From the IMG/VR virus record IMGVR_UViG_2908572912_000001, positions 1 to 34,457 of that record: 34,457 nt of DNA; one strand, 5' to 3'. A program made the translations under genes and the position numbers. The stretch is from a virus. Taxonomy: Duplodnaviria; Heunggongvirae; Uroviricota; Caudoviricetes. The notes below the pieces were generated by a model. It made no database searches and was not told where the DNA came from. It saw only the letters and a list, made by a program, of their open reading frames with translations. Shown here in pieces: positions 1,917-34,457 of this stretch (position 1 is the stretch's first letter; every line of letters begins with the position of its first letter).

Positions 1917-2202
1917 GTGAGTCACCTCTGACTGAGAGTTTACTCACTTAGCCGCGTGTCCACTATTGCTGGGTAAGATCAATTTCACCTTTATCCCGCC
2001 CCTTAGACAGAATGTTATAATCTGAACCCACAACAGCGTTTGTACCGGAGCTGGTCCGTTGCAAAATGCTCACCGGGAGAATTCAGATATTCCCTCTATC
2101 ACACTCTGTACATATCACAGCCAAAGGACAGACCAGATTGAAGTGGTAAAACCGATCGTGCACACTACGCAGTCTCACAACTAACAAGAGGTTATTATCC
2201 TG

Positions 2203-2607
2203 ATGGATCAGGTCGTTGTTTTTCAAAAGATGTTTGAGCAAGTGAGAAAAGAGCAAAACTTCTCCTGGTTTTATTCAGAATTAAAACATCACCGTATTGC
2301 ACATTACATTTATTATCTGGCTACGGATAACATCAGAATTATTACTCACGATGATACGGTTTTGTTATTAAGAGGAACCAGGAACCTGTTAAAAGTTAGT
2401 ACGACCAAGAACCCTGCTAAAATAAAAGAGGCCGCATTGCTTCATATTTGCGGAAAATCTACATTTCGGGAATACTGTTCAACACTGGCAGGCGCGGGCG
2501 TTTTCCGGTGGGTTACTGATGTTAATCATAACAAACGCAGTTACTACGCCATTGATAATACGCTTTTATATATTGAAGATGTAGAAAATAATAAACCATT
2601 AATCTAG
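2203..2607 (+). CDS. ycgX: YcgX-like protein (134 aa)
   Basis: 134-aa ORF; assignment from remembered K-12 synteny (ycgX next to iraM) and length. Low certainty on the name. Confidence 0.5.
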   Translation: MDQVVVFQKMFEQVRKEQNFSWFYSELKHHRIAHYIYYLATDNIRIITHDDTVLLLRGTRNLLKVSTTKNPAKIKEAALLHICGKSTFREYCSTLAGAGVFRWVTDVNHNKRSYYAIDNTLLYIEDVENNKPLI

Positions 2608-2809
2608 CTAAAGTTGGATACTTAAGAAATGCTTCATAATTCAGTAAGGCATTAGCATAATGGAAATAAAAGTGCAGAGACTATCTCTATGGATGATTAA
2701 TACTGTCTTTTTATTGTCACCCATAAATAATCACCAGACTAATACTATCAACTTGATATTTGAAATGTGATCACTTGACTTTTGATACGTTATTTTATAA
2801 CGGTTAACA

Positions 2810-2846
2810 TATTTATAAAAACAACGGCCGTGCCACACGTCCGTTT
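2810..2846. terminator. Diverged copy of the icd 3'-flank hairpin/terminator (aaaacaacggccgtgccacacgtccgtttcaatacttaac)
   Basis: About 45 bp alignable with 3681-3725, with compensatory changes in the hairpin stem. Confidence 0.4.
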
Positions 2847-3306
2847 CAATACTTAACGCACATGTATTTTGGTTTAGTCATCATCCGGTTATATGTATTT
2901 TAGCCAGGAACAGGTTAAATCATTCCTATATAACTCAAAAATTGAAACCTTATTCTCATGTCATGCTTATATTCATTATTATCGTTATATAAAAAGGCAA
3001 CCATAATATTTAGCAAATTGGCACAAAGTAGCATAAAGGCTATGTTTTAATTACAGGATGTTCAGTCATTTGAATGTATAACATTATAGCTAAACAAATC
3101 TAAAACGAAGTCAATAATTTATTGCTTTCACAAAATCTCATTTTGTTTAACATCCATTGAGATTCCTTGCTTTAAATTTTATTTTATATAAGCCATCATT
3201 TTAATTAATTTATTTTTTTGAGGGGGGGGTAATATACTCATATGCAAAATCAAGAAATAAACATCCTAATGAACCATATTAAATACCGTGGGATAAGACA
3301 TAACAA

Positions 3307-3630
3307 ATGAAGTGGATAGTAATTGACACGGTAATTCAACCTACATGTGGTATATCTTTTTCAGCCATATGGGGTAATATGAAAATGATCATCTGGTATC
3401 AATCTACTATATTTCTCCCTCCTGGCAGTATATTTACACCGGTTAAGTCTGGTATTATCCTTAAGGATAAAGAATATCCTATTACTATTTATCACATCGC
3501 ACCATTCAACAAGGATTTATGGAGTTTACTCAAAAGCAGTCAAGAGTGTCCTCCAGGAGAAAGCAAAATAACAAATAAATGTTTACATAATAGTTGCATT
3601 ATAAAAATATGCCCATATGGGCTCAAGTAA
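3307..3630 (+). CDS. iraM: IraM-like anti-adaptor protein (107 aa)
   Basis: 107-aa AT-rich ORF adjacent to icdC, as in K-12 (iraM/ycgW next to the icd pseudo-3'-end); sequence recognised from memory. Confidence 0.65.
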
Positions 3631-3671
3631 TGGGCTTCATATAAATATGCTCGATATGCTATTAATAATAT

Positions 3672-3710
3672 CCACATAAATAAAACAACGGGCGTGTTAT
3701 ACGCCCGTTT
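3672..3710 (-). terminator. icd rho-independent terminator (hairpin aacgggcgtataacacgcccgtt followed by a T-run on the minus strand); also placed to stop iraM
   Basis: GC hairpin plus T-run immediately after the icd stop codon. Confidence 0.6.
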
Positions 3711-3732
3711 CAATATTTAACACATGGAGAGA

Positions 3733-3900
3733 TTACATGTTTTCGATGATCGCTTCACCAAACTCTGAACATTTCAGCAGCTTAGCGCCTTCCATCAGAC
3801 GTTCGAAGTCATAAGTTACGGTCTTGGCATTGATTGCGCCTTCCATACCTTTAACAATCAGGTCAGCCGCTTCAGTCCAACCCATATGGCGCAGCAGTAT
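3733..3900 (-). pseudogene. icdC: Displaced 3' end of icd (isocitrate dehydrogenase), last 55 codons only = icdC-type prophage junction
   Basis: Translation [55 protein letters not shown] equals the Icd C-terminus; similarity stops abruptly at 3900. Confidence 0.9.
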
Positions 3901-4596
3901 ATAAAAACATTAAGTTCAAGTCATTGATATTTAATGATAAAAAATATTTTATTGTTTTTTTATTAGCCAAAATCAACTTTATTCAACCGTTTGATTTCAT
4001 TGACGTTCGTTTTTATTTTGGGGAAAGGTTTTCTCTACCATTTATATCCAAATTACAAGTCTACATTTTATTAACACCTCAATACATGTGAGGCCTTGCA
4101 GACCTTTGTGAGACCTTATGTGTCTCTGTTTTGTCCCAACTTATGTTAAGAGGCACATAATTAAAAATAAGATAACGATGCCGCCAATCAGTGCAAAACC
4201 TTGTTTACTCCACGACTGTCTGCCCCATTATCTGCATACATAATTATCTTCCATAACTGAGATAAATGTCGGTTATGAGCGAACAACAGACGTTTAGTTT
4301 ATGATGACTGTATCTATACATTAAACATAACATCCATTACCGGCACCGCTTATTAATTGCTATCTGATATTGTCACTAAAAAATAGGCATTCCCCGATAT
4401 AATAATTACAAAGAAGCTTTTGGTGCTGGCAATCGGTATACCTAATAGTGGACTGCGACTTTCCGGGCTCGACAAGGATATATCAATGTATGAGCAGGAA
4501 AATTAGACCGTGGTGCGTCATATGATGACTAAGCACGGATAACAGCTACTTAATTGAAACTATTGATTATATTACAGCCAGTGCCTTATAGGATGG

Positions 4597-5718
4597 TTAG
4601 TCATCAACCGCGACTCCTGCACAATCATGGGCTATTGCCAGCAATTGTTTTTTAATTGCTTTAGCATCTACCGTCATATCTACTGTAGCAAAATGGATCT
4701 TATGTCCCTGAGTGACAACATACTCATTAAGCATATAGCCAACAGCTGGATGAAGTAGAAGACCAGCGGCATTGAGCGAAAGCGGATCCGTCTTGTTCTC
4801 CTGTGTTCTAAGGTAGGTATATAGCTGATAAATATAGCCATTACGTAGTGATTGCTCCCGATGCCAACCCTTTGTCAGAATCGAATTAAATTTGGTATCG
4901 ATAATAATACGCCGCTGGGCAGTCTTGTGTTCCAGAATAATGTCTGACTTCATTGTCGGGAAAATCTCTGCACTACCTGCACTTTGATCGCTCAACGCCC
5001 ATTTCAGCTCTTTCCCTGCAGAGACCTGCCAAGTTGTTTTGGCAAGGTGTACACGATATAAGCCAGCGATACCTTTTTCAAATAGTCTTCTCATCCAGTA
5101 AAGGTTATTTGAGGGCGCAGGTAAAAGATATTGGCCTTGATCTTCGGTCGGCATCAGCAGTTCAAAAGCTAATCGTGCGGCATCGACCATCGGTTTATCT
5201 GCGGCATCATGGCGTCCAAAACGCCACACTGAGGGTAATTCGTGGGGGGCAGGATATCCTCCATTTATCCCCTCACGGCGAAGTGATATTGCCATAAAAT
5301 GGCAATCTGCCGCCAAAGACGGTTTCACTATGATTGAGGCCAGACGTTCTAACGCACAGCGAACATAGCGATTTCGGGGGGTGTTGAGGGTTATGTCTTG
5401 AAAATGGCAGGCAACCTGTCCCCGTTCCAGTAGTTGATGACTGGCAGTATACAGTATGTCAATGCGCCCTCTCACCCGGTTCAGGGCCGCATGACAAGTT
5501 TGGTATCCCATATTTAAATTGCGACGTCGGCGCAGCGTAATCTCATGAAGGAGGATTGTCGCCACCAGGTCGGGGATTTCTGCTGGGTTATCTTCTACTG
5601 CGATCTGATTGCGCCCTAACTGACGAAACAGATCTGAAGCGTACAGCATCAGCATCCAGATATTTCGCATGGGAATACGTGATGCTGTATGTTGCTCACT
5701 CCCGGTTATTGTCGTCAT
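4597..5718 (-). CDS. mcrC: McrC-like endonuclease subunit (PD-(D/E)xK) of a McrBC-type modification-dependent restriction system
   Basis: N-terminal IPMRNIWMLMLYA resembles McrC IPVRNIYYMLTYAW; C-terminal IIIDTKF...NGYIYQLYTYL matches the McrC nuclease motif (VDAKY...NLYQLMNYL). 4-bp overlap with upstream mcrB-like gene. Confidence 0.8.
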   Translation of the reverse strand: MTTITGSEQHTASRIPMRNIWMLMLYASDLFRQLGRNQIAVEDNPAEIPDLVATILLHEITLRRRRNLNMGYQTCHAALNRVRGRIDILYTASHQLLERGQVACHFQDITLNTPRNRYVRCALERLASIIVKPSLAADCHFMAISLRREGINGGYPAPHELPSVWRFGRHDAADKPMVDAARLAFELLMPTEDQGQYLLPAPSNNLYWMRRLFEKGIAGLYRVHLAKTTWQVSAGKELKWALSDQSAGSAEIFPTMKSDIILEHKTAQRRIIIDTKFNSILTKGWHREQSLRNGYIYQLYTYLRTQENKTDPLSLNAAGLLLHPAVGYMLNEYVVTQGHKIHFATVDMTVDAKAIKKQLLAIAHDCAGVAVDD

Positions 5719-7697
5719 TTTGCTAATAACACTTTTCTGGCTTCATCGACTTTATTTGGAGCATCGAACCAATATTCGGCGAGCAAAGGGCAGATCTCTG
5801 TATCAACGACTTGTTCATACCAAGCCTGGGCATCGTTGATTTTTTGGCCGATAGCTGGGGTGACATAGCTGTGACCGATACAAAACTGTGGTCCTAAGGT
5901 AACATCTTTTGCCAGCATATCGTTAAGTACCGTCAGTCGAGATTTGATGAATGCTAACATGTCAAAATCAATTGCGTAATTATAATTTACCCAGTTTCTC
6001 CACGCGTCATTAAAAGCTGGCTTTAGATCGATAAACGCGAAACGACGGCGCAGCGCTAGGTCAAGTAGTGCGAGTGAGCGGTCTGCAATATTCATCGTAC
6101 CGATGATATATAGATTCTCAGGAATGTATATTTTTTCATCATCATTTTTAGGATAGGAAAGAGATAATGCCTCAGTCGGCGTGCGTTTATCTGCTTCCAT
6201 CAACGTGAGTGTTTCACCGAAGATTTGCGCCGGATTGCCACGATTAATCTCTTCAATTATCACCACATATTTCGAGGTAGGATTATTGACTGCAGTTTTG
6301 ATTGCATTTACAAAAGGTCCATCAATTAGCGTCAATTGCCCTTCTTTACCTGGACGCCAGCCGCGAATAAAGTCTTCGTAAGAGAGGTTCGGGTGAAATT
6401 GCACCGCGCTAATACGCTCAGGTGCTTTTTCTCCCATCAAGCAGTACGCCAGACGTCGCGCTAACCAGGTTTTTCCAGTTCCGGGTGGTCCTTGTAATAT
6501 CAGGTTTTTCTTGTCGATCAGGCGCTGAAGTGTGAGTTGGATCTTAGCCTCTTCCAAGAAACAGCCATCCTGCACCAGATGACTGATGTCATAAGGAACG
6601 TGAGTGAGTTTTGGCAACGGCGCACTCTCTTCGACAGTTTCCTCAGTTATCGTCTGGGATTCGTTTTTCTCAAAATTCAGGTATTCATAATTTCCGGACT
6701 CAAGGGACTTTAACTCATCATCATTGCATAGTTTCTGTAGATAAAAGTAGATTGAGCTTGTAACTGTTTTGCTCTCAGGATGCTCTACCTTGAATACGTC
6801 CAAGTAGTTTTCTTCCAACTCCGAAGCAGTGAAATAAGGGCCATTTTTTTTCAGGCATAACGCCTTAATTTTATTCAGTAAAGAGGCTTTCCACGTTCTA
6901 TTTGCCACCTCATCTTTAGACTGGCTAAGATCTGTATTCCACGCTGATAAAGAAAGTTCTGGGAAAGAATGAACCGGATAGTTTGGTTGGGTAAAGACCT
7001 CGTTCAGCGCCCGCATAAGACTCAGGTAACTTTGTCCACTACAGCGACCTTTTGCCCCGTTTTTAATGATCTTAATGTTTAACACTGTCTGAATGTAATA
7101 CTGCGACTGGCTATCTAAAGTAGGGTAGAACCAAGGACGGGTCCAGTACAACCCCATGGTGAGATTCCAACCGACATTCATTACTGTAGAAGCGATGTCA
7201 TATGCGGCAGTGAAGTCTGCAGAGTTAGTATTCTGGTTATCCGCAAAGGTCATTGCCTGCGAGAACATTTCCCACAAGCATTCAATGTCATTAGGGTCGC
7301 GTGACTTTTCATAACCAAAGAACCAAGATTTTTGGTTATTCAACAGCGGGATTCCGGCAAAGGAGTCAGGAATCGGTTCGTTCACGCCCAACAAATTCGC
7401 TAGCTTGGCAGCAATAATTTTGCGATTGCTGTCGGTCAAGTTACGATTGAACAAGCCCATAGTAGTAAACGGACAAATGTCTTTTAAGGGAAAGATCTCT
7501 CCCATAATAGATTTGTCCTGCAGATGGGACATTCCTTCCACACCTGAGGCAATTAGATGAATACCTTTGACTAATTCATCTCTACGATTTCGCCAAGTCA
7601 GTAACGCGTTGGCAAAAGCCTCATAAAAACTAGCCCAAGCAAATTTGCCATCATGTTCTGCTGTATCCACGGGAACTCCATTATACTTGTTGAGCAA
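5715..7697 (-). CDS. mcrB: McrB-like AAA+ GTPase (C-terminal 270 aa) with a long, unrecognised N-terminal domain of about 390 aa
   Basis: C-terminal LILQGPPGTGKTWLARRLAYCL, VVIIEEINRGN, YIIGTMNIADRSLALLDLALRRRF align with EcoK McrB GTPase motifs; N-terminal region has no similarity I recognise. Confidence 0.8.
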   Translation of the reverse strand: MLNKYNGVPVDTAEHDGKFAWASFYEAFANALLTWRNRRDELVKGIHLIASGVEGMSHLQDKSIMGEIFPLKDICPFTTMGLFNRNLTDSNRKIIAAKLANLLGVNEPIPDSFAGIPLLNNQKSWFFGYEKSRDPNDIECLWEMFSQAMTFADNQNTNSADFTAAYDIASTVMNVGWNLTMGLYWTRPWFYPTLDSQSQYYIQTVLNIKIIKNGAKGRCSGQSYLSLMRALNEVFTQPNYPVHSFPELSLSAWNTDLSQSKDEVANRTWKASLLNKIKALCLKKNGPYFTASELEENYLDVFKVEHPESKTVTSSIYFYLQKLCNDDELKSLESGNYEYLNFEKNESQTITEETVEESAPLPKLTHVPYDISHLVQDGCFLEEAKIQLTLQRLIDKKNLILQGPPGTGKTWLARRLAYCLMGEKAPERISAVQFHPNLSYEDFIRGWRPGKEGQLTLIDGPFVNAIKTAVNNPTSKYVVIIEEINRGNPAQIFGETLTLMEADKRTPTEALSLSYPKNDDEKIYIPENLYIIGTMNIADRSLALLDLALRRRFAFIDLKPAFNDAWRNWVNYNYAIDFDMLAFIKSRLTVLNDMLAKDVTLGPQFCIGHSYVTPAIGQKINDAQAWYEQVVDTEICPLLAEYWFDAPNKVDEARKVLLAK

Positions 7698-8039
7698 TGA
7701 TAATTTATCTGTGTGAGTTTTAACATATTACTATCAGTTATAGAAAAATTTAACTACCCGATACAGAGAGCGGCATGCTGAATTTGACCTGACTTGCTTC
7801 CAACCAATTAAAATCAACTTATTTATCAATTGGTTATTTTGGCGCATAGCGGTCATCAAGGGAATATCGCGTTGTCATAAGGTGTCGAGGCTCGGAGGTT
7901 CAAATCCTCTCATGCAAAAAATAAATAAAATTAATGACGGTTGGAAATTATTCAATACATACACTCTCGAAAGTGCATCAACCAACCGCAGCACGTCTTG
8001 CATACGGCGTGTCTGCAGTTTTATATAATCCTGGCTGGA

Positions 8040-8737: not shown

Positions 8738-9826
8738 ATGAAGAAGGTAAAATCAATTCACTATTTGCGAGGTGTAGCAGCATTACTCGTTGTTGCATAT
8801 CACAATAAACAATACCTAAATGAAGTTTACGCACAAAAAGATCTAGGTGATTTATTGTTTATTAGTGGTGGTTTTGGGGTTGATCTGTTTTTTATTATAA
8901 GTGGATTTATAATAATGTTATCGAGTCAAAAAAAAGAAACAAATTCCCCTATTAACTTTATGACCAGGCGTTTTTTCAGGATTTACCCTGTATTTTTCAT
9001 TTGCACAATCTTATTCTTTTTATTGAACCCAGTCTTCACCGAAAGTGAATTATTGCGTTCATTGTTTCTGCTTCACCTGGACTATTATTCAGAAGCGCCA
9101 TTCTTCGGATACAACGTGCTTTATCCAGCATGGACATTAACCTTTGAAGTCTATTTTTATTTCATTTTTATGCTTGCAATATCGCTGAGTCATAAAAACA
9201 GATTATTAATATCAGTTATTGCATTGATAGTCCCGCTACTTCTCATACAGTTGAAATTTTCCAACAGCCTTTCTCTATCAAGTAAGTTTACGATTGGTGA
9301 TACAGGTCATTGGCATATTGGCTTTCTAAACTTAATGTCATCACCCATGCTGTTAGAATTCGTTTATGGGATGTTTCTGTATATAATACACAGAAAATTT
9401 AAATATATAAAAAACGCAAAGGCGATATCATTCCTTTTGGTTTCATTTGGTGTTTGCTCATATTTTTATCAATTCAGATTTGGTCATGGCCCTTTAAACT
9501 TCGGATTGTGGGCAGCCTCCATAATTACGGGAGTTTTACTTTATGAAGTTAACTTCGGATTAAGGGAAAATAAAATACTCAGTAAGCTAGGTGATATCTC
9601 TTACTCTCTGTATTTATCCCATGCGATAGTAATGCTATTTTTAATTAATTTTAAGGATTTCATTCCGCTTTATGAAAAACCTGGGTTCTCTAAGTTTTCA
9701 TTCATTATTGCTCTTAGCTTGTTCTTATCATTCTTTATTTATAAATATATTGAAACTCCATTCATTAATATCGGAAAAACAATATCCAAAAGACTTTCAA
9801 AACCAACATTAACTTATAGCGAATAG
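8738..9826 (+). CDS. Acyltransferase family 3 integral membrane protein (OafA/Oac-like O-acyltransferase), AT-rich cargo gene
   Basis: 362 aa, about 10 hydrophobic segments, N-terminal YLRGVAALLVVAYH and FFIISGF motifs typical of acyltransferase-3; very low GC relative to neighbours. Confidence 0.75.
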   Translation: MKKVKSIHYLRGVAALLVVAYHNKQYLNEVYAQKDLGDLLFISGGFGVDLFFIISGFIIMLSSQKKETNSPINFMTRRFFRIYPVFFICTILFFLLNPVFTESELLRSLFLLHLDYYSEAPFFGYNVLYPAWTLTFEVYFYFIFMLAISLSHKNRLLISVIALIVPLLLIQLKFSNSLSLSSKFTIGDTGHWHIGFLNLMSSPMLLEFVYGMFLYIIHRKFKYIKNAKAISFLLVSFGVCSYFYQFRFGHGPLNFGLWAASIITGVLLYEVNFGLRENKILSKLGDISYSLYLSHAIVMLFLINFKDFIPLYEKPGFSKFSFIIALSLFLSFFIYKYIETPFINIGKTISKRLSKPTLTYSE

Positions 9827-10533: not shown

Positions 10534-13310
10534 TCAACGAATACTGATGCCGGAAGCAGCCTTTTTGGTCACAATCACCGTACAGTCGGTGATATTGCCT
10601 GCCCCCTGATTGCCTTTCTGGAAAATCTTAAACTCCAGAGTGACGCTTCCCCTGCCACTCGGCATATCAATAACCGCACTGTAACTACCGGGAATGGCCC
10701 CTTTAGTTTCTCTGGATGCGATTAATACGCCGTTTTTGCGAACTTCAAAACCATACCCCGTGTACCTTGTACCTCCCGGGTTATCACCACTTCCCGGATC
10801 GTCATACGCTATACCGTTAAAGATAATGGGCGGAATAATGATTTGACGGTCAAAGTTATGATCATCGCTGATGGTGACTGTAACCGTCCCGTCTGGTGTT
10901 TCCGTGTTACCCCACGTACCAGCCTTTTTCGGGAATGATTTGGATACTGTTTTAACAAAATCACCTCTGACCTGATTCGCCTCCAGCATACCCTTAATCG
11001 TACAGTTTTCATTTATCGTGACGTTGTTGAGCGTCCCGGCGTTCGCATTCACACTGCCACTGATATCCGCATTTTTAGCGGTCAGCTTTCCGTCCGGTGT
11101 CAGGGAAAATACCGGTGGATTTCCACCACTGGTAATGGTGGGGGCCGTCAGGCGTTTGAGGAACACGTCGTTCATGAATATCTGGTTGCCCTGCGCCACA
11201 AACATCGGCGTTTCATTCCCGTTTGCCGGGTCAATAAACGCGATACGATTGGCGGCAACCAGAAACTGGCTCAGTTTGCCTTCCTCTGTATCCTCCATGC
11301 TGAGGCCAAGCCCCGCGACATAATGCTTACCGTCTTCGGTCTGCTCAATTTTGACGCCCCACATGGCATTCCATTTATCGTTGGCGTCCTTCCACTCTTT
11401 CGAAAACTCCTCCAGTCTGCTGGCGTTATCCTCCGTCAGCTCGACTTTTTCCAGCAGCTCCTTGCCGAGATGGGATTCGGTTATCTTGCCTTTGAAAAAA
11501 TCCAGGTAACCTTCCGCATCATCGCTCGCCCGACCAACGGCTTCCACGAATGCCGATTTGCCAACGGTGTTCACACTGCGGATATAAAAGTAATAATCAT
11601 GGCCCGGTTTGATATTGATACTGGCGGCTATCCAGTACAGCGCCGTACCAAGATAGCGGGCTGTGGTTTCAACCTGCCTGATATCGGTAATCCGCTTTTC
11701 CGAGAACCAGAACTCAAACTGTACCGTCGGGTCATAAACGGCAAGATGCGGCGTGGCGGTTATCTGAAAATAGCCCGGCGTCAGCTCAATCCTCGACGGT
11801 GTTGCCGGTGCGGCAATCCGGAACGATACCGACGCCGGATCGCCCTGCTGTCCCCACGCATTTACCGCCCGGACTGTCAGCGTGTACCGCCCCAGCGCCA
11901 GTTGCGTGAAGCGGTATGTGGTTTCCGTCGTCCGGGCCGTGCTGACCAGCCGCTCACTGCCGTCATCCGCTGCCACGGTCAGGCGAAGCATAAAGCTCAC
12001 CCCCTTCACCACCTTCGGCGTGTCCCAGCGCGCCAGCACCTGATATTCCCCGCTGTCTGCGGTGACTTCGGCAGTCAGGTGCTGCACCGCTGGCGGCGTG
12101 ACACCATTCACCGTGCCGCTCTGGTCGCCGTCAAAGTGCGCCCCGTTATCCACGATGGCCTCTTTTTCCGGTACATGCTGCACGGCGGTGATGGCATACG
12201 TGCCGTCATCGTTCTCACGGATACTCACGCAGCGGAACAGACGCTGGCGCAGCGTCGGCAGCTTCAGCCCCCATACGCTGTATCCGGCAACGCCGTCAGG
12301 AACACGGCTCACTTTTACCTTCACGCCGTCGGTGACGGACTGGACCTCCACGCTGACCGGATTGCCACTTCCGTCAACCAGGCTTATCAGCGTGGTACCG
12401 GAGGATGGCAGCGTGATTTCACGGTCAAGCGTCAGCGTCCGGGTCTGGCTGTTCACCGCCAGCACGCGCCCGCCGATGCTGATCCCCGCATAGTCATCAT
12501 CGCAGATTTCAATAACATCACCCGGCACATGGCGAAGCCCTTCGGCACCCACGCTGAAATCCACGGTCTGCGTCTCCAGCAGCTCCGTTTTAATCAGCCA
12601 CAGCCCGGCGCGGTGTGCCTGCCCCCGGCTGGTACAGCCAAAGGCATCCATCTTCGTGACGTTACGACCGTAACGGGCAATGGCCTGCGTGTCCTCCACA
12701 AGCTCTGTCGCCGTCTCCCAGCCGTTATCCGGGTCAATCCAGTTCACCTCAACGGCATTATGGCGGTCCTTCAGGGCGCTGAAGCTGTAGCGGAACGGCG
12801 CGCCATCATCCGGCATCACCACATTACTGCGGTTATAGGTCCACACCTTATCTGATGGTCGGTCCTGCACGAACGTCAGCGTCTGCCCGTTCCATACCGG
12901 CATACAGCGCATCGCCGAGCAGAAATCACTGAGCACATCCCACGCCTTGCGCTGTGTGGTCAGGTACGCATTACAGGTGATGCGCGGCTCCGTGCCGCCA
13001 AAGCCGTCCGGCACTGACTGGTCGCAGTACTGGCCGATGACATACAGCGCCCATTTATCCACATCCGCCGCACCAAGACGTTTCCCCATGCCGTAGCGCG
13101 GATGGGTCAGCATATCCCACAGACACCAGGCCATGTTGTTGCTGTACGCTGGCCTGAACGTTCCGTCCCAGATACCGCTGTATTGCCGCGTCTGCGGGTT
13201 ATAATTCGACGGCACCTGCAGAATACGCCCGCGCAGATGATAATTACGGCTCACCTGCTGGCTGCCGAACTGCTCCGAGTCCACCTGCACGCCGACCAGT
13301 GCCGTGTTCG
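10534..13310 (-). pseudogene. J: Tail tip/host-specificity protein J, C-terminal ~918 codons only (N-terminal ~200 codons deleted)
   Basis: Translation matches lambda J from ...[19 protein letters not shown] to the C-terminal receptor-binding region; no ATG start, upstream sequence is nu1 in another frame. Confidence 0.9.
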
Positions 13311-13819
13311 GGTATCAGTTCATCCAGCGCGGCTGCTTTGTTCATGGCTTTGATGATATCCCGTTTCAGGAAATCAACATGTCGGTTTTCCAGTTCCGGA
13401 AAACGCCGCTGCACCGACAGGGGGATCCCGTCGAGAATACTGGCAATTTCACCTGCGATCCGCGACAGCACGAAAGTACAGAATGCGGTTTCCACCACTT
13501 CAGCTGAGTCTCTGGCATTCTTCAGTTCCTGTGCGTCGGCCTGCGCACGCGTAAGTCGATGGCGTTCGTACTCAATAGTCCCTGGCTGGAGATCTGCCTC
13601 GCTGGCCTGGCGCAGTTCTTCAACCTCCCGGCGCAGCTTTTCGTTCTCAATTTCAGCATCCCTTTCGGCATACCATTTTATAACGGCGGCAGAGTCATAA
13701 AGCACCTCATTACCCTTGCCACCGCCTCGCAGAACGGGCATTCCCTGTTCCTGCCAGTTCTGAATGGTACGGATACTCGCACCGAAAATGTCAGCCAGCT
13801 GCTTTTTGTTGACTTCCAT
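13311..13819 (-). pseudogene. nu1: Terminase small subunit Nu1, 3'-truncated (about 169 of 181 codons), fused out of frame to J
   Basis: MEVNKKQLADIFGASIRTIQNWQEQGMPVLRGGG... matches lambda Nu1 to ...ALDELIP, then reads into J-derived sequence and stops at 13244. Confidence 0.9.
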
Positions 13820-16833: not shown

Positions 16834-17916
16834 ATGAAAAAATTAACAGTGGCAATTTCTGCTGTAGCTGCATCAGTACTGATGGCGATGTCTGCTCAGG
16901 CAGCTGAAATTTATAATAAAGACAGTAACAAGCTGGATCTATATGGGAAAGTTAATGCCAAGCACTACTTCTCCTCTAATGATGCAGATGATGGTGATAC
17001 TACTTATGCCCGTCTTGGCTTCAAAGGTGAAACCCAAATCAACGATCAACTGACTGGTTTCGGTCAGTGGGAATATGAATTCAAAGGCAACCGCGCTGAA
17101 TCTCAAGGCTCCTCCAAAGACAAAACCCGTCTTGCATTTGCAGGCCTGAAATTCGGGGACTACGGCTCAATCGATTACGGCCGTAACTACGGTGTAGCAT
17201 ATGACATCGGTGCGTGGACTGACGTTCTGCCAGAATTCGGTGGCGATACCTGGACCCAAACAGATGTGTTCATGACTGGTCGCACCACTGGTGTTGCAAC
17301 TTATCGTAACAACGACTTCTTTGGTCTGGTTGATGGTCTGAACTTTGCTGCTCAGTATCAGGGTAAAAATGACCGCACTGACGTAACTGAAGCTAATGGT
17401 GATGGTTTCGGTTTCTCCACTACTTATGAGTATGAAGGATTCGGTGTAGGTGCAACCTATGCTAAATCTGACCGCACTAATAATCAGGTTATCTACGGTA
17501 ACAACAGCCTGAATGCATCTGGTCAAAATGCTGAAGTATGGGCAGCTGGTCTGAAATATGATGCGAACAACATCTATCTGGCCACCACCTATTCTGAAAC
17601 CCAGAACATGACTGTTTTTGGTAATAACCATATTGCCAACAAAGCACAAAACTTCGAAGCTGTTGCACAATATCAGTTCGACTTCGGCCTGCGTCCATCC
17701 GTTGCTTACCTGCATTCTAAAGGAAAAGACTTGGGTGTTTGGGGTGATCAGGACCTGGTTGAATATGTTGATGTAGGTGCAACCTATTACTTCAACAAAA
17801 ATATGTCCACTTTTGTTGACTACAAAATCAACCTGATTGATAAGAGCGATTTCACGAAAGCATCTGGCGTTGCTACCGATGATATCGTTGCTGTAGGTAT
17901 GGTTTACCAGTTCTAA
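16834..17916 (+). CDS. nmpC: OmpC/OmpD-family general porin NmpC, apparently intact (signal peptide, C-terminal ...VYQF)
   Basis: 360 aa, signal peptide [23 protein letters not shown], porin beta-barrel signature and terminal Phe; lies between Q and the lysis cassette on the opposite strand, as in DLP12. Confidence 0.9.
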
Positions 17917-21685: not shown

Positions 21686-23581
21686 TTAATTATTTTTCTT
21701 TAACTTGAAATTTCTTCCCATTGCTAGTGTTCTTCGAAGATTCGAATCATAAGCTGGTTGATAATATCTATCATAAAAATCCTTAATTGTCTGATGGTAA
21801 GTATCCAGCATCAAACCATAAAACCCCATGACCTTAAGATAATCCACCAAGGGAAATAAATAATCATCAGTCTGAACATCAGTATCAATATTATTTTTTT
21901 GTTTTTTAACTTCAAATTTGTATAAGTTTAACTCACCCTTATCCATCGTGCATGAAAAAAGGTCGTCAAAAATCAAATCAATTTTTGTCATAGGAACTCG
22001 TTCTTTTCCAGACATTATAGGTAGAATATCAATACCTAAGAGCGAACCTAATACAAAGTCGTAATGAAGCGAAATCACTGAGTCATTCGATGTCGAGTTG
22101 CCTTTGATAAATACTCTACTTAGTGCCGAGTCAAAAACATTCTCAACTCTCTCTCTCGTCATGTTTGCGACATCTACAACCCCCATATCACGAGAAGCTT
22201 TTATTGTGATTTCATCTATAAATGCTTTGGAATCTAGTGAATGTAAAAACAACATGAAGTTATCTAACTGTTCAGAGCATTTAATAGCCACCATAAGATT
22301 TTCGTATATATCTTTTTTATACTCAATCGGTAAATTTGCTACCGCAAAAGCAGCATAAAATTCTTGCACTGATTTATGCAGAAAAACATACCTATTATTT
22401 CCCTCAGGTTGGATAAGGCAAGTTATCTCAATAAGATCATCTATAAAGTTTGATGCATCTTCTTTAAGATAACCTTCTGTTTCAATAGCATCTTCAGCAT
22501 ATCTAAGCAACTCCTCTCCCCAAAACTCAAATTTCTCCTCAATCAGTGCGTTATAGCAAATAGCTGAAAAACACAATTTAGCTTTTTCACCAATAATGTT
22601 TGATTTTTTCTCGCGCGTATATACTTTTATTTTATCATGCCTTGCATATAAGGTGTCAAAGAGGCTTCGATAAAACTCTATTATATTATTTGGAATATCA
22701 TTCATATAAGGATAACAATAATACAAAAGAGTAACTAAAATTGGATTGCAAATAGTTCCCTCAAGTTCTTCTTTATCACATAGTAAATCCGCCAAGACTT
22801 TAAACGAGGCATCACTACTTGAGAATCTGTCATTTTTCGATAAAGAATGAAGAATACAAATCTTATCAGAAATATTTAGCTTATCTATAAAAATATTATA
22901 CACATCAGTAGTATAACATATATCTGTATTTGGTCTCGTTGTTGCGATAATTGGTGTGTTAAAATGATAATGAATGTTTTTTATTTCATTCATCATCATA
23001 GTTCGCTCTTCATGTTTAACCTCATCAAATCCATCCAACATTAAAACGACTCTTTGGGATTGCAGTAATATTTTCAAGCTATCCTCTGAACACCCCACAC
23101 CAAATGAATTAAGAATGTCTGCCAGATAAGCAATAATATTTGCATTCTTCACCCTTCTTAATTCAATAAAAAAAGGCATCCGTTCTGATTTTTTTATTTC
23201 CTCGCTAAACAACTTGCGTAAAATAGTACTTTTCCCTTGCCCCGCTATACCGACTATATTTACAATACCATGAAATGGTAAAGTGACCCCATCTTTTATA
23301 ACGACCTTGTCTTTATTAGATGCCACCTCAACAGTTAACGGATAATAAATATCATCTAAAAAAATATCATAATCAGCGTTGTGCAAAGTTCTCATTTTCA
23401 GAGATGGTAGCACATGCTTTCTTAAATAATTTTCTCTTCCGAGGGGATCATTTAATTGTTCGAGTATAACCTTGCCTTCATCTAGGTCCCTAGCCCAAGG
23501 TTTAGAGAGCAATACTTCTGTTATTTTTTCCGCAGCTTTTCCTACTGTGCTATTAATAATAGTCGCAAGAAACTCATCCAT
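21686..23581 (-). CDS. NACHT-family STAND NTPase (bacterial NLR-like), candidate antiphage protein; ~110-aa N-terminal region, central NACHT, ~350-aa C-terminal region
   Basis: Walker A GIAGQGKST, NACHT-type Walker B VVLMLDGFDEV, sensor-1-like IIATTRP; GC ~30 percent island. Start placed at ATG (MDEFL...) preceded by GGTGA; track alt-start gives 23638. Confidence 0.8.
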   Translation of the reverse strand: MDEFLATIINSTVGKAAEKITEVLLSKPWARDLDEGKVILEQLNDPLGRENYLRKHVLPSLKMRTLHNADYDIFLDDIYYPLTVEVASNKDKVVIKDGVTLPFHGIVNIVGIAGQGKSTILRKLFSEEIKKSERMPFFIELRRVKNANIIAYLADILNSFGVGCSEDSLKILLQSQRVVLMLDGFDEVKHEERTMMMNEIKNIHYHFNTPIIATTRPNTDICYTTDVYNIFIDKLNISDKICILHSLSKNDRFSSSDASFKVLADLLCDKEELEGTICNPILVTLLYYCYPYMNDIPNNIIEFYRSLFDTLYARHDKIKVYTREKKSNIIGEKAKLCFSAICYNALIEEKFEFWGEELLRYAEDAIETEGYLKEDASNFIDDLIEITCLIQPEGNNRYVFLHKSVQEFYAAFAVANLPIEYKKDIYENLMVAIKCSEQLDNFMLFLHSLDSKAFIDEITIKASRDMGVVDVANMTRERVENVFDSALSRVFIKGNSTSNDSVISLHYDFVLGSLLGIDILPIMSGKERVPMTKIDLIFDDLFSCTMDKGELNLYKFEVKKQKNNIDTDVQTDDYLFPLVDYLKVMGFYGLMLDTYHQTIKDFYDRYYQPAYDSNLRRTLAMGRNFKLKKNN

Positions 23582-23968
23582 TTTTTCACCACATTCATTA
23601 ACCAATACGTGGTGCATTCTTACAAGACTCAGTAACAATTGTCAATCATAGGTTTTCGCATGATTGCAAAACGCCATAAACAATTGTAGCACCATAATTT
23701 TAAACACTATAAATATACAACCTTCCTACAAGCATTCAGTACATCGCTTAATCACAGGGCTTGAATATATAGTAAGGAATCGATATTAATCACCTCATCT
23801 ACTTTAAACATCTTACACACCTATAATTTATAATAGTCAACACGAGGTCATCATATTAAACATGCAATTACAAACATTCATTTTTATATAAATTTTCATG
23901 ATTTAACCGTAGAGCGACGGTAATAAATTTCATATACAAGGATTTAAGCTCCCATACGTTTTCTATTA

Positions 23969-31713: not shown

Positions 31714-32604
31714 TCAGGCTGCCAGATCATCGTTTCCGATGGAAGCATAATAAGCTTTTTCTGCTTCTGCCGGAGGAGTATGGCCCAGCCTTTCCAGCAA
31801 TCGTCGATTGTTATACCAGTCCACCCACGTGAGTGTGGCCAGTTCCACTTCTGCACGGTTTTTCCAGCTCTTACGGTGTATTACCTCCGCTTTGTAAAGG
31901 CCATTGATGCTCTCCGCCATCGCGTTGTCATACGAGTCGCCTGTACTTCCTGTTGATGCCAGTAATCCGGCTTCCTTAAGCCGCTGTGTGTAGGCCAGCG
32001 ATACATACTGAGAACCTTTATCACTGTGATGGACTGTGCCGGACGGTCGACGGGCCCATAACGCCTGCTCCAGAGCATCCAGCACAAATGTCGTTTCCAT
32101 AGACGATGAGACCCGCCACCCCACGATGTATCCGGCAAACACATCAATGATGAACGCCACATAGACGACCCCCTGCCATGTGCTGACGTAAGTAAAATCA
32201 GCCACCCACAACTGGTCAGGACGTTCTGCCACGAACTGACGGTTTACGCGGTCGCCTGCGACAACGGCTTTCCGGCTGATGGTCGTACGGACCTTTTTAC
32301 CCCGGAGAACACCGGCAAGTCCCATAACCGCCATGAGACGTGCCACAGTGCATCTGGCCACTCTGATACCTTCCCGTAACAACTGACGCCAGACTTTACG
32401 CACACCGTATACCTTGTGATTTTCATCGTATACGCGCTGTATCTCTTTCTTCAGCCAGTCATCGCGCTGCGCACGGGCACTGCGTTTATCCGGATGATGT
32501 CGCTGTTGCTGACAGTGGTAATACGTTGACGGGGCAATATGCAGTTCGCTGCATAGCGGTCCGACCCCGTACTGCTCACGCAGCTTATCCAGCAGTGGCA
32601 TCAT
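31714..32604 (-). CDS. IS629-like transposase OrfB (DDE)
   Basis: 296 aa with DDE integrase-core motifs ([19 protein letters not shown]). Confidence 0.9.
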
Positions 32605-32927
32605 TTTTTCCAGAGGCGGTCGAACTCCGCCTTCGCAAAATAAGCGGAAGCCTGGCGAAGGATATCGTTACTGCGGCGCAGTTCACGATTTTCACGTTCC
32701 AGCTCTTTCAGACGCTGACGTTCAGCGGTGGTGAGCCCGCCATCACCGCCTCCGGTATCCCGCTCATGCTGGCGTACCCAGACACGCAGAGTCTCCGGTG
32801 TACAGCCAATCTTTGGGGCAATGGAACAAATTGCCGCCCACTGTGAGTCATATTCGCCCTGACTTTCCAGAACCATACGAATCGCCCTCTGACGGACTTC
32901 GGGGGAAAAACGAGTATTTTTAGTCAT
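32601..32927 (-). CDS. IS629-like transposase OrfA
   Basis: [57 protein letters not shown]... as remembered for IS629/IS1203 OrfA. Confidence 0.9.
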
Positions 32928-33088: not shown

Positions 33089-33325
33089 ATGTCTCGACTA
33101 ATCACTTTACAGGACTGGGCTAAAGAAGAATTTGGGGACTTAGCACCAAGTGAGCGAGTTCTGAAAAAATACGCGCAAGGGAAAATGATGGCCCCACCCG
33201 CTATAAAAGTTGGTCGCTACTGGATGATTGACCGAAATTCCCGTTTTGTAGGAACGCTTGCAGAACCGCAACTCCCAATAAACGCAAACCCAAAACTCCA
33301 ACGGATAATCGCTGATGGCTGCTAG
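33089..33325 (+). CDS. xis: Excisionase-like protein (Xis) overlapping the integrase start
   Basis: 78-aa ORF immediately upstream of and overlapping int; name from position. Confidence 0.65.
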   Translation: MSRLITLQDWAKEEFGDLAPSERVLKKYAQGKMMAPPAIKVGRYWMIDRNSRFVGTLAEPQLPINANPKLQRIIADGC

Positions 33326-34457
33326 ACCCCGATCTCACAAAATCTCTATACCCAATTTATATTGCAAATTAGATAAGCGAACCGGAAAGGTATATTGGCA
33401 ATACAAACATCCACTATCCGGTCGTTTTCATAGCTTAGGAACTGATGAGAATGAAGCAAAACAAGTTGCTACTGAAGCAAATACCATTATTGCTGAACAA
33501 CGTACCCGACAAATATTAAGCGTCAATGAGCGTCTGGAAAGAATGAAAGGCAGGCGCTCAGACATTACGGTGACAGAATGGCTTGATAAATATATTTCTA
33601 TCCAGGAGGACAGGCTGCAACATAATGAACTAAGACCCAACTCCTATCGGCAAAAAGGCAAACCCATTCGTCTTTTCCGTGAGCATTGTGGAATGCAACA
33701 CCTCAAGGATATTACCGCACTTGATATTGCCGAAATAATTGATGCTGTAAAGGCTGAAGGTCATAACAGGATGGCGCAAGTCGTGAGAATGGTGTTGATC
33801 GACGTCTTCAAAGAAGCACAACACGCAGGACATGTTCCGCCAGGATTTAACCCAGCGCAGGCAACAAAACAACCGCGAAATCGAGTAAACCGCCAAAGAT
33901 TGTCACTGCCCGAATGGCAGGCAATATTTGAAAGCGTAAGCAGACGGCAGCCCTATTTAAAATGCGGCATGCTACTTGCTCTTGTTACTGGACAACGTTT
34001 AGGCGATATCTGCAATTTGAAATTCTCTGATATATGGGACGACATGTTGCACATTACTCAGGAAAAAACCGGTTCAAAACTTGCTATTCCGCTTAACCTG
34101 AAATGCGATGCTCTGAATATTACCCTTCGTGAAGTTATATCTCAGTGCAGGGATGCTGTTGTTAGTAAATATCTGGTCCATTACCGTCACACTACCTCTC
34201 AAGCAAACAGAGGAGACCAGGTTTCTGCAAATACTCTGACAACGGCTTTTAAAAAGGCCCGGGAAAAATGTGGCATAAAATGGGAGCAAGGAACTGCGCC
34301 CACATTTCATGAGCAGCGATCTCTGTCAGAACGGTTATATCGGGAACAGGGTCTGGATACGCAAAAATTGTTAGGCCATAAATCCAGAAAAATGACCGAC
34401 CGATACAATGATGATCGTGGTAAAGACTGGATTATCGTAGATATCAAAACAGCATAG
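33315..34457 (+). CDS. int: Tyrosine integrase (e14 IntE / phage 21 type, icd-site specific family); stop codon is the last three bases of the window
   Basis: 380 aa; C-terminal catalytic region ...HEQRSLSERLYREQGLDTQKLLGHKSRKMTDRY (R..H.R..Y pattern); similarity to IntE recalled from memory. Confidence 0.9.
   Translation: MAARPRSHKISIPNLYCKLDKRTGKVYWQYKHPLSGRFHSLGTDENEAKQVATEANTIIAEQRTRQILSVNERLERMKGRRSDITVTEWLDKYISIQEDRLQHNELRPNSYRQKGKPIRLFREHCGMQHLKDITALDIAEIIDAVKAEGHNRMAQVVRMVLIDVFKEAQHAGHVPPGFNPAQATKQPRNRVNRQRLSLPEWQAIFESVSRRQPYLKCGMLLALVTGQRLGDICNLKFSDIWDDMLHITQEKTGSKLAIPLNLKCDALNITLREVISQCRDAVVSKYLVHYRHTTSQANRGDQVSANTLTTAFKKAREKCGIKWEQGTAPTFHEQRSLSERLYREQGLDTQKLLGHKSRKMTDRYNDDRGKDWIIVDIKTA

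Follow-up and report, generated by a model that had tools for sequence, protein, structure and literature searches.

iraM of Escherichia coli lies between two copies of the icd terminator, possibly the relic of an older lambdoid integration

An icd 3′ replacement module carried in attP keeps icd intact in lysogens of the phage 21/e14 type. Lambdoid phages also carry morons, accessory genes that occur singly, among them stx, bor and genes for nmpC-type porins, and deletions between short direct repeats can arise by RecA-independent slipped misalignment. IraM couples PhoPQ signalling to RpoS stability. According to the summary of Hill et al. 1989 given in PMC6379469, integration of e14 and phage 21 duplicates the 3′ end of icd at attL and attR, with icd/icdC as the resulting pseudogene. 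A 163-bp pseudo-icd has been described for e14, and the grounded prophage DLP12 has a 47-bp duplication of argU (PMC6379469); duplication of the icd 3′ end and the existence of grounded prophages are thus known already. Also known are the patchy, variable presence of iraM among E. coli strains and its paralogue iraL of UPEC, and iraM itself has been stated to be a gene that "is found on the e14 prophage" (PMC4045071).

We analyzed a stretch of 34,457 nucleotides (the window), which is E. coli chromosome read opposite to the direction of icd. In this window, iraM is bracketed by a sequence that follows icd (copy B) and by a diverged version of it (copy A). The window also shows a present-day example of the e14/phage 21 duplication, a displaced icd fragment (3733-3896) with its terminator. 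This fragment is the same as intact icd up to 3896 and divergent beyond, and it is annotated as partial isocitrate dehydrogenase in matching genomes. The junction of the present prophage (3896/3897) lies about 165 nt inside icd from the copy B side, corresponding to a 21/e14-type crossover. The resident prophage, of about 30 kb, is defective and mosaic, with its integrase gene at the window edge. It also carries Nu1, Rz, R and Q; its late genes are on the - strand, an accessory porin gene is on the + strand, and int adjoins icd. Beyond ycgX, an IS3-family element replaces bluF-bluR: positions 326-723 run into ycgZ-side sequence, and the bluR end resumes from 1981. The features are as follows.

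724-1980: IS3-family element replacing bluF-bluR, with orfA (1617-1925, - strand) and orfB (754-1620, - strand)
2203-2607, + strand: ycgX (DUF1398), flanking copy A on its outer side and resembling a lambdoid single accessory gene
2660-2770 (approximate), + strand: ymgL, a small ORF annotated in RefSeq relatives, in the flank common to iraM+ and iraM-less strains
2815-2865: copy A, a diverged duplicate of the terminal ~51 bp of the icd 3′ module, with spacer, hairpin (2823-2845) and T-run side at left; stem broken here
2866-3306, + strand: iraM upstream/regulatory region, 27% G+C, including ymgK
~3006-3050: ymgK, 15 codons, annotated in RefSeq relatives
3307-3630, + strand: iraM, 107 aa, RssB anti-adaptor, convergent with icd (annotation of matching genomes)
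3679-3731: copy B, putative terminator of the icd module, hairpin at 3687-3709, terminator-like on both strands, between the convergent iraM and icd
3733-3896, - strand: displaced icd 3′ fragment (icdC-like), last 54 codons and stop, at the far end of the resident prophage
3897-34457: resident defective lambdoid prophage at icd, a present-day integration with a phage 21-type junction, outside the proposed relic
4016-4027: phage 21-type arm dodecamer in the resident prophage
4597-7697: McrBC-like pair in the resident prophage
8738-9826: acyltransferase gene in the resident prophage
10534-13819: truncated J tail-tip gene in the resident prophage, abutting Nu1
16834-17916, + strand: porin gene in the resident prophage, between the lysis genes and Q
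21686-23638: NACHT NTPase gene in the resident prophage
31714-32927: second IS3-type transposase gene, in the resident prophage
33315-34457: int, reading towards icd

An earlier note had proposed that the sequence after the icd stop codon recurs upstream of iraM, and a repeat search of the window bore this out. The ungapped core of the repeat (2818-2860 and 3682-3724) is identical at 36 of 43 positions with a start-to-start distance of 864 bp; when one 2-nt gap is allowed, the copies extend to about 51 nt (2815-2865 and 3679-3731). Comparison of the post-icd 61-mer with the 1.6 kb upstream gave a best ungapped score of 25.5, against 9.5 ± 1.1 (maximum 15) in 300 dinucleotide-preserving shuffles, an excess of about 14 standard deviations. 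The similarity was also significant on formal alignment, both by blastn within the window (E = 1e-7) and by nhmmer with a profile of 13 distinct icd 3′ modules, which matched 2865-2815 at E = 1.8e-8. Counted from the icd stop, copy A aligns to positions +6 to +55 of the module, and the similarity reaches 20 nt past the stem. Across 5,426 complete E. coli genomes, the repeat 57-mer was found at 1-6 places per genome (median 2), all explicable as icd modules plus copy A; no third copy of the module was detected elsewhere in the window or in eight related loci, and an Rfam scan of 2000-4400 returned no family near threshold. Because both copies are short GC-rich hairpins in AT-rich DNA, a chance likeness or a dispersed terminator- or REP-like family might be suspected, but the shuffles, the E-values, the similarity beyond the stem, the few places per genome and the Rfam result rule this out to the point where its probability is negligible.

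The 821 bp enclosed by the two copies have a G+C content of 30%, compared with 44.6% for the whole window, in agreement with the earlier note, which had called this interval AT-rich. The further statement that it contains only iraM holds except for the tiny ymgK, the sole other annotated feature. No terminal inverted repeats at 2866/3681 and no transposase were found, and the duplication, at about 51 bp and imperfect, is unlike the exact 2-14 bp duplications of transposon or IS targets.

We then compared the hairpins of the two copies. Copy B folds strongly on both strands (-18.4 and -17.3 kcal/mol, z = -4.0 and -4.5), and its 9-bp GC-rich stem, followed by the tail GTTTTATTTA on the icd strand, has the form of an intrinsic (rho-independent) terminator, making it a putative terminator of this kind. 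This hairpin is invariant in 14/14 B-type icd modules (13 distinct sequences), which came from Escherichia and Citrobacter loci and one contig titled Sutterella in its record. In this window, copy A folds poorly (z = -0.3 and -1.1), and both partners of its stem pair 6 have changed, from G-C to C/T, giving a mismatch. By contrast, the stem of copy B recurs unchanged in copy-A alleles of other lineages (AACGGGCGTGCCATACGCCCGTT), which fold well and differ from copy B only in the loop (CC vs TT), at two flank positions and by a 2-nt indel. Terminator features are accordingly present in ST69/ST648-type alleles of copy A and absent from the allele of this window. An intermediate allele (...CCATACGTCC) was also found, and four stem variants of copy A were recognized, including this one. 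Since the alleles of other lineages share the stem of copy B, the changes in the K-12-type allele of this window are later decay from an intact stem and not covariation, contrary to the earlier description of them as compensatory.

The intact hairpin of ancestral copy A, its terminator-like context on both strands and its location exactly between two transcription units could also be understood if copy A had arisen locally from the icd terminator, through gene conversion or unequal exchange and without any link to integration, and had been kept to insulate iraM from ycgX/ymgL read-through or ycgX from antisense transcription. However, the four stem variants show that copy A's hairpin is breaking down separately in several lineages, which argues against a selected function, and the presence of an AT-rich, phage-related cassette exactly between the copies would be left unexplained. 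We consider this explanation very doubtful. In a separate observation, each of the two copies in strain CFSAN061763 has IS200C at its outer (T-run) edge, inserted at an identical position and in one orientation (locus positions 1737-2499 and 3315-4075), and the loop of copy B in this strain is flipped, reading ATAAC instead of GTTAT on the + strand.

To place the repeat within the phage attachment system, we compared it with lambdoid phages. Window positions 3890-3680 are matched by the free lambdoid phages 21, 4A7, ev017 and others (about 25 records, 211-nt match). The match takes in the last 54 icd codons with their stop, then spacer, hairpin and T-run, and stops no more than 2 nt from copy B's outer edge. 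In the phage 21 record OL657228.1, this block is annotated as an ICDH-like pseudogene and a terminator, and is followed by three YYTTCCCCAAAA arm sites and then int. Free phages thus carry the same block next to attP, indicating that copy B forms the distal end of this known icd 3′ replacement module. Copy A in turn is a diverged copy of that end alone. Among the matches listed, the B-type module is joined to phage-like DNA in S. flexneri and Citrobacter braakii, and also in E. albertii and two Escherichia sp., which all have prophage DNA at icd; in E. albertii, an integrase pseudogene follows the module.

A different icd terminator was found in Salmonella, Pseudescherichia and several Citrobacter, among the matches listed. 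In Citrobacter werkmanii and C. meridianamericanus, TTCCCCAAAA repeats resembling the arm sites of phage 21 come just after the Citrobacter-type icd terminator, so that some native-looking icd terminators in other genera may be phage-supplied modules too. In the B2 strain E. coli XYEH3783, the iron/manganese transporter genes sitABC (sitA, sitB, sitC) adjoin the displaced icd fragment (locus positions 4950-7288). The phage 21 record has sitA beside attP (1-577), and the sit genes at icd therefore appear to be phage 21-type cargo.

On balance, we lean towards the view that the two copies bracketing iraM are the relic of an old lambdoid integration at icd in which iraM was retained. The earlier note had likewise suggested a relic duplication of an attachment site, and its proposal stood in part: the copies do correspond to the tail of a phage module and enclose phage-related cargo, but icd coding sequence, an integrase gene and arm sites, as found at an icd attL/attR scar, were missing. 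The iraM pair resembles the e14/phage 21 duplication in locus and in block, copy B being the terminator end of the ~210-bp segment common to phage and host, and the copies are direct repeats homologous to the attP/attB common sequence. The pair departs from the e14/phage 21 duplication in three ways: the sequence common to its copies is confined to the ~51 bp at the end of the module, past the stop codon; the crossover region is missing, as are int/xis and arm sites; and the enclosed DNA is 0.82 kb with one gene and no prophage. No icd coding remnant was detected beside copy A past position +6 after the stop, either by blastn with word size 7 or by maximum-sensitivity nhmmer with the 13-module profile. 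The crossover of 21/e14-type phages lies ~165 nt inside icd and copy A has no icd coding sequence, indicating that copy A is not an att core.

Searches of 2600-3730 yielded no YYTTCCCCAAAA arm dodecamer, the only matches in the window being at 4016 and 22514, and no integrase or excisionase gene; tblastx against prophage loci matched iraM and ycgX alone in this interval. In IMG/VR, every match to the A-type hairpin, the A-type spacer or the iraM 3′ flank had the same chromosomal context inside prophage-at-icd predictions, and neither an independent element with the A-type hairpin nor an A-type module joined to icd was found there. These absences count against the relic. So does the junction of the iraM 3′ flank with copy B, which lies within ~2 nt of the module edge; a deletion would not be expected to stop exactly there at random.

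We next examined the phage affinity of the enclosed DNA. Diverged IraM homologues (54-73% aa identity) were encoded, in all cases with retrievable context, in lambdoid prophages between the Q antiterminator and holin genes and on the opposite strand, one of them directly beside stx. Together with the 30% G+C content, this points to a phage origin of the enclosed DNA. In the phage collection, 45/46 IraM-matching records were 60-80% identical at the amino acid level (65% in every listed record), and by organism name 32/46 were Stx2-, Stx2a- or Stx2c-converting phages. Stx2/Stx2c-converting phages are known to integrate at sites other than icd. Among the records listed from the phage collection, in which the phage-borne homologues are at most 65% identical, none combined an icd module with a close iraM; this too counts against the relic, as does the lack of any A-type module on icd coding sequence. 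DNA similarity between iraM and the phage-borne loci is limited to the coding region, and the non-coding parts of the cassette had no DNA homology to these loci.

A homologue of the neighbouring gene ycgX (Pfam DUF1398, E = 1e-47), with 70% aa identity, occurs in E. albertii prophages; it is located between Nu1 and Rz and runs against the late genes, and 2131-2608 of the window has DNA homology to the prophage carrying it. The order expected for a prophage at icd, namely ycgX position (+), iraM position (+), int and icd, is the order and orientation found on the chromosome. This match gives mild support for a prophage origin, its chance expectation being about 1 in 8. Like lambdoid morons, the IraM homologues are AT-rich single genes in the Q-lysis interval, placed between late genes and transcribed against them. 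Chromosomal iraM fits in its orientation and its order relative to icd and in nothing more: unlike a moron, it has no phage neighbours and its upstream region is unrelated to that of the phage-borne copies. A promoter of its own is known from the literature, and iraM is inherited vertically, with deep allelic divergence. As a side observation, O157:H7 ATCC 43888 has a prophage with int/xis directly at icd, and by megablast the ycgX-iraM segment is absent from its chromosome. Stx2/Stx2c-converting phages from O157:H7 hosts carry the 65%-identical iraM homologue.

The distribution of the cassette was surveyed in the same 5,426 genomes. It was present in about 3,860, and 1,036/5,426 had a single-copy junction from which exactly 864 bp are missing. 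In these iraM-less strains, the outer flank of copy A is fused to one B-type copy, followed by icd. Two such loci were examined, one with intact icd (L001) and one with a sit-carrying element at icd (L002, from XYEH3783); both contain the flank 2600-2817. Single-copy examples include Nissle 1917, NU14, ATCC 11775, LF82, ATCC 25922, APEC O18 and ST131 strains, all of phylogroup B2, and every recognized iraM-less (864-bp) genome belongs to B2. An A-type single-copy query gave a best match of 96.9%, indicating that all single-copy alleles are B-type; no A-type or hybrid single-copy allele was found among full-length matches in the 5,426 genomes. Copy A and iraM were also present at three loci with intact icd and no prophage there (L003, L150, L152). 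The cassette is therefore separate from today's prophage, a result that leaves an older event at icd standing, and its placement on e14 (PMC4045071) is imprecise.

Comparison of allele depths bears on the direction of this change. The iraM upstream region differs by 7-8.5% between K-12-like, ST69-like and ST648-like alleles, and by up to 10.6% among iraM+ E. coli, compared with 1-2% for ycgX, bluR, icd and rluE over the same K-12-like, ST69-like and ST648-like strains. The ST69 and ST648 alleles were labelled from the names of strains sharing them; ST69 belongs to phylogroup D and ST648 to phylogroup F, sister to B2. L175 (GCA_009898965.1) represents a divergent Escherichia lineage whose flanks are 94.5% identical to E. 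coli. Its positions 6001-7700 contain ycgX, the iraM upstream region, an extra YmgB-family gene and then iraM at 80% nucleotide identity; window positions 2926-3184 are 74% identical there. This lineage is also missing the flank 2600-2817; within 4.7 kb of the cassette, ymgL, copy A and an icd module are all absent. The deep divergence of the alleles and the presence of iraM beside ycgX in L175 indicate that the cassette predates the diversification of E. coli.

One-copy genomes might be taken for unoccupied sites. The comparison with iraM-less strains proposed in the earlier note did reveal exactly one repeat period missing, but the distribution and allele depth suggest secondary loss rather than a naive site, and the B2 single-copy state is most simply, and probably, a precise secondary deletion. 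Ancestral copy A shares blocks of 15 and 17 identical nucleotides with copy B, including its first 15 nt, so that a crossover in these first bases gives the observed all-B product. As in slipped misalignment, B2 strains lose exactly one period and keep a single copy, and the ancestral copies share these blocks and the hairpin. Among about 1,036 genomes there is one deletion allele only (all B-type), with no recurrence seen, and slipped misalignment is a putative mechanism for the B2 loss.

A second way to account for the clean junctions is that the iraM cassette inserted directly into the icd terminator, either with the hairpin as attachment site or by staggered or illegitimate recombination, duplicating ~51 bp without any integration in the coding core. 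The duplication indeed spans the intergenic terminator alone, from +6 after the stop to the T-run; the two junctions are clean, and phage genes are gone. Were the empty allele attB, its A flank, its all-B bases and a crossover in the first 10-15 nt would match a site-specific exchange in which attP had diverged. However, no recombinase, terminal inverted repeats or second such element was found, a 51-bp duplication far exceeds those made by transposases, and the empty allele is probably derived, not ancestral. The cassette of L175 lies beside ycgX without either copy; it can thus exist apart from the repeats, which counts against direct insertion and against the relic alike. We judge direct insertion unlikely, though it deserves more weight than the other alternatives.

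The exactness of the boundary has also to be considered. At least five unrelated sequences, including phage arms, ycgX/ymgL DNA, the iraM cassette and IS200C, join the module at one and the same boundary, to within 3 nt. A hot spot for recombination or insertion might accordingly lie at the outer edge of the hairpin in the icd terminator, with the duplication produced by putative hairpin-mediated template switching instead of an integrase; IS200C beside both copies in CFSAN061763, the flipped loop there and the precise loss in B2 strains would fit. On the other hand, attP must carry the whole terminator and nothing more, which in itself explains a shared boundary. IS200C at both sites shows shared sequence only, since a second IS copy could have spread by recombination. 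This makes a hot spot an improbable explanation. By extension, the hairpin edge might be a reusable docking or excision site for cassettes such as iraM, for IS200C and for phage arms, the pair of copies acting as a crude cassette exchange through which an RpoS regulator would be turned on or off across a population; we regard this idea as highly speculative and very unlikely.

If the two copies are the relic of an old lambdoid integration, the following history would account for the locus. Each integration at icd displaces the module already there to the prophage's far end, which the window shows today at 3679-3896. An ancient lambdoid prophage, or two in series, would have occupied icd before E. 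coli diversified and decayed later, leaving the opposite-strand accessory gene iraM and possibly ycgX. The module supplied by the phage would have stayed on icd as copy B, refreshed by later phages, while internal deletions trimmed the older, displaced module to its last ~51 bp, which is copy A. The copies would then have acted as direct repeats, and in B2 strains recombination or replication slippage within the first 15 identical bases would have removed 864 bp together with iraM. Such a history resembles that of grounded prophages such as DLP12, in which foreign DNA lies between imperfect direct repeats that derive from the 3′ end of the transcription unit targeted. It differs in that the iraM locus has lost almost everything except one accessory gene and in that its repeat is not an att core.

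A full-text search of open-access papers and preprints retrieved no paper that connected iraM with the icd terminator or with an earlier integration at this gene, and no description of the exact 864-bp polymorphism or of the phage slot of the IraM family. The arrangement of iraM and the icd terminator thus apparently has not been described before. The locus reveals no new mechanism. It places iraM outside e14-type prophages, in an ancient cassette of its own bracketed by two copies of the icd terminator, with relatives that are lambdoid accessory genes, and it relates the absence of iraM from B2 strains to what is probably a clean 864-bp deletion between the copies. The 864-bp polymorphism provides a simple marker that can be scored by PCR. 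Taken together, these findings would offer a concrete history for how a phage accessory gene may become a core stress regulator at a hot spot of phage integration.
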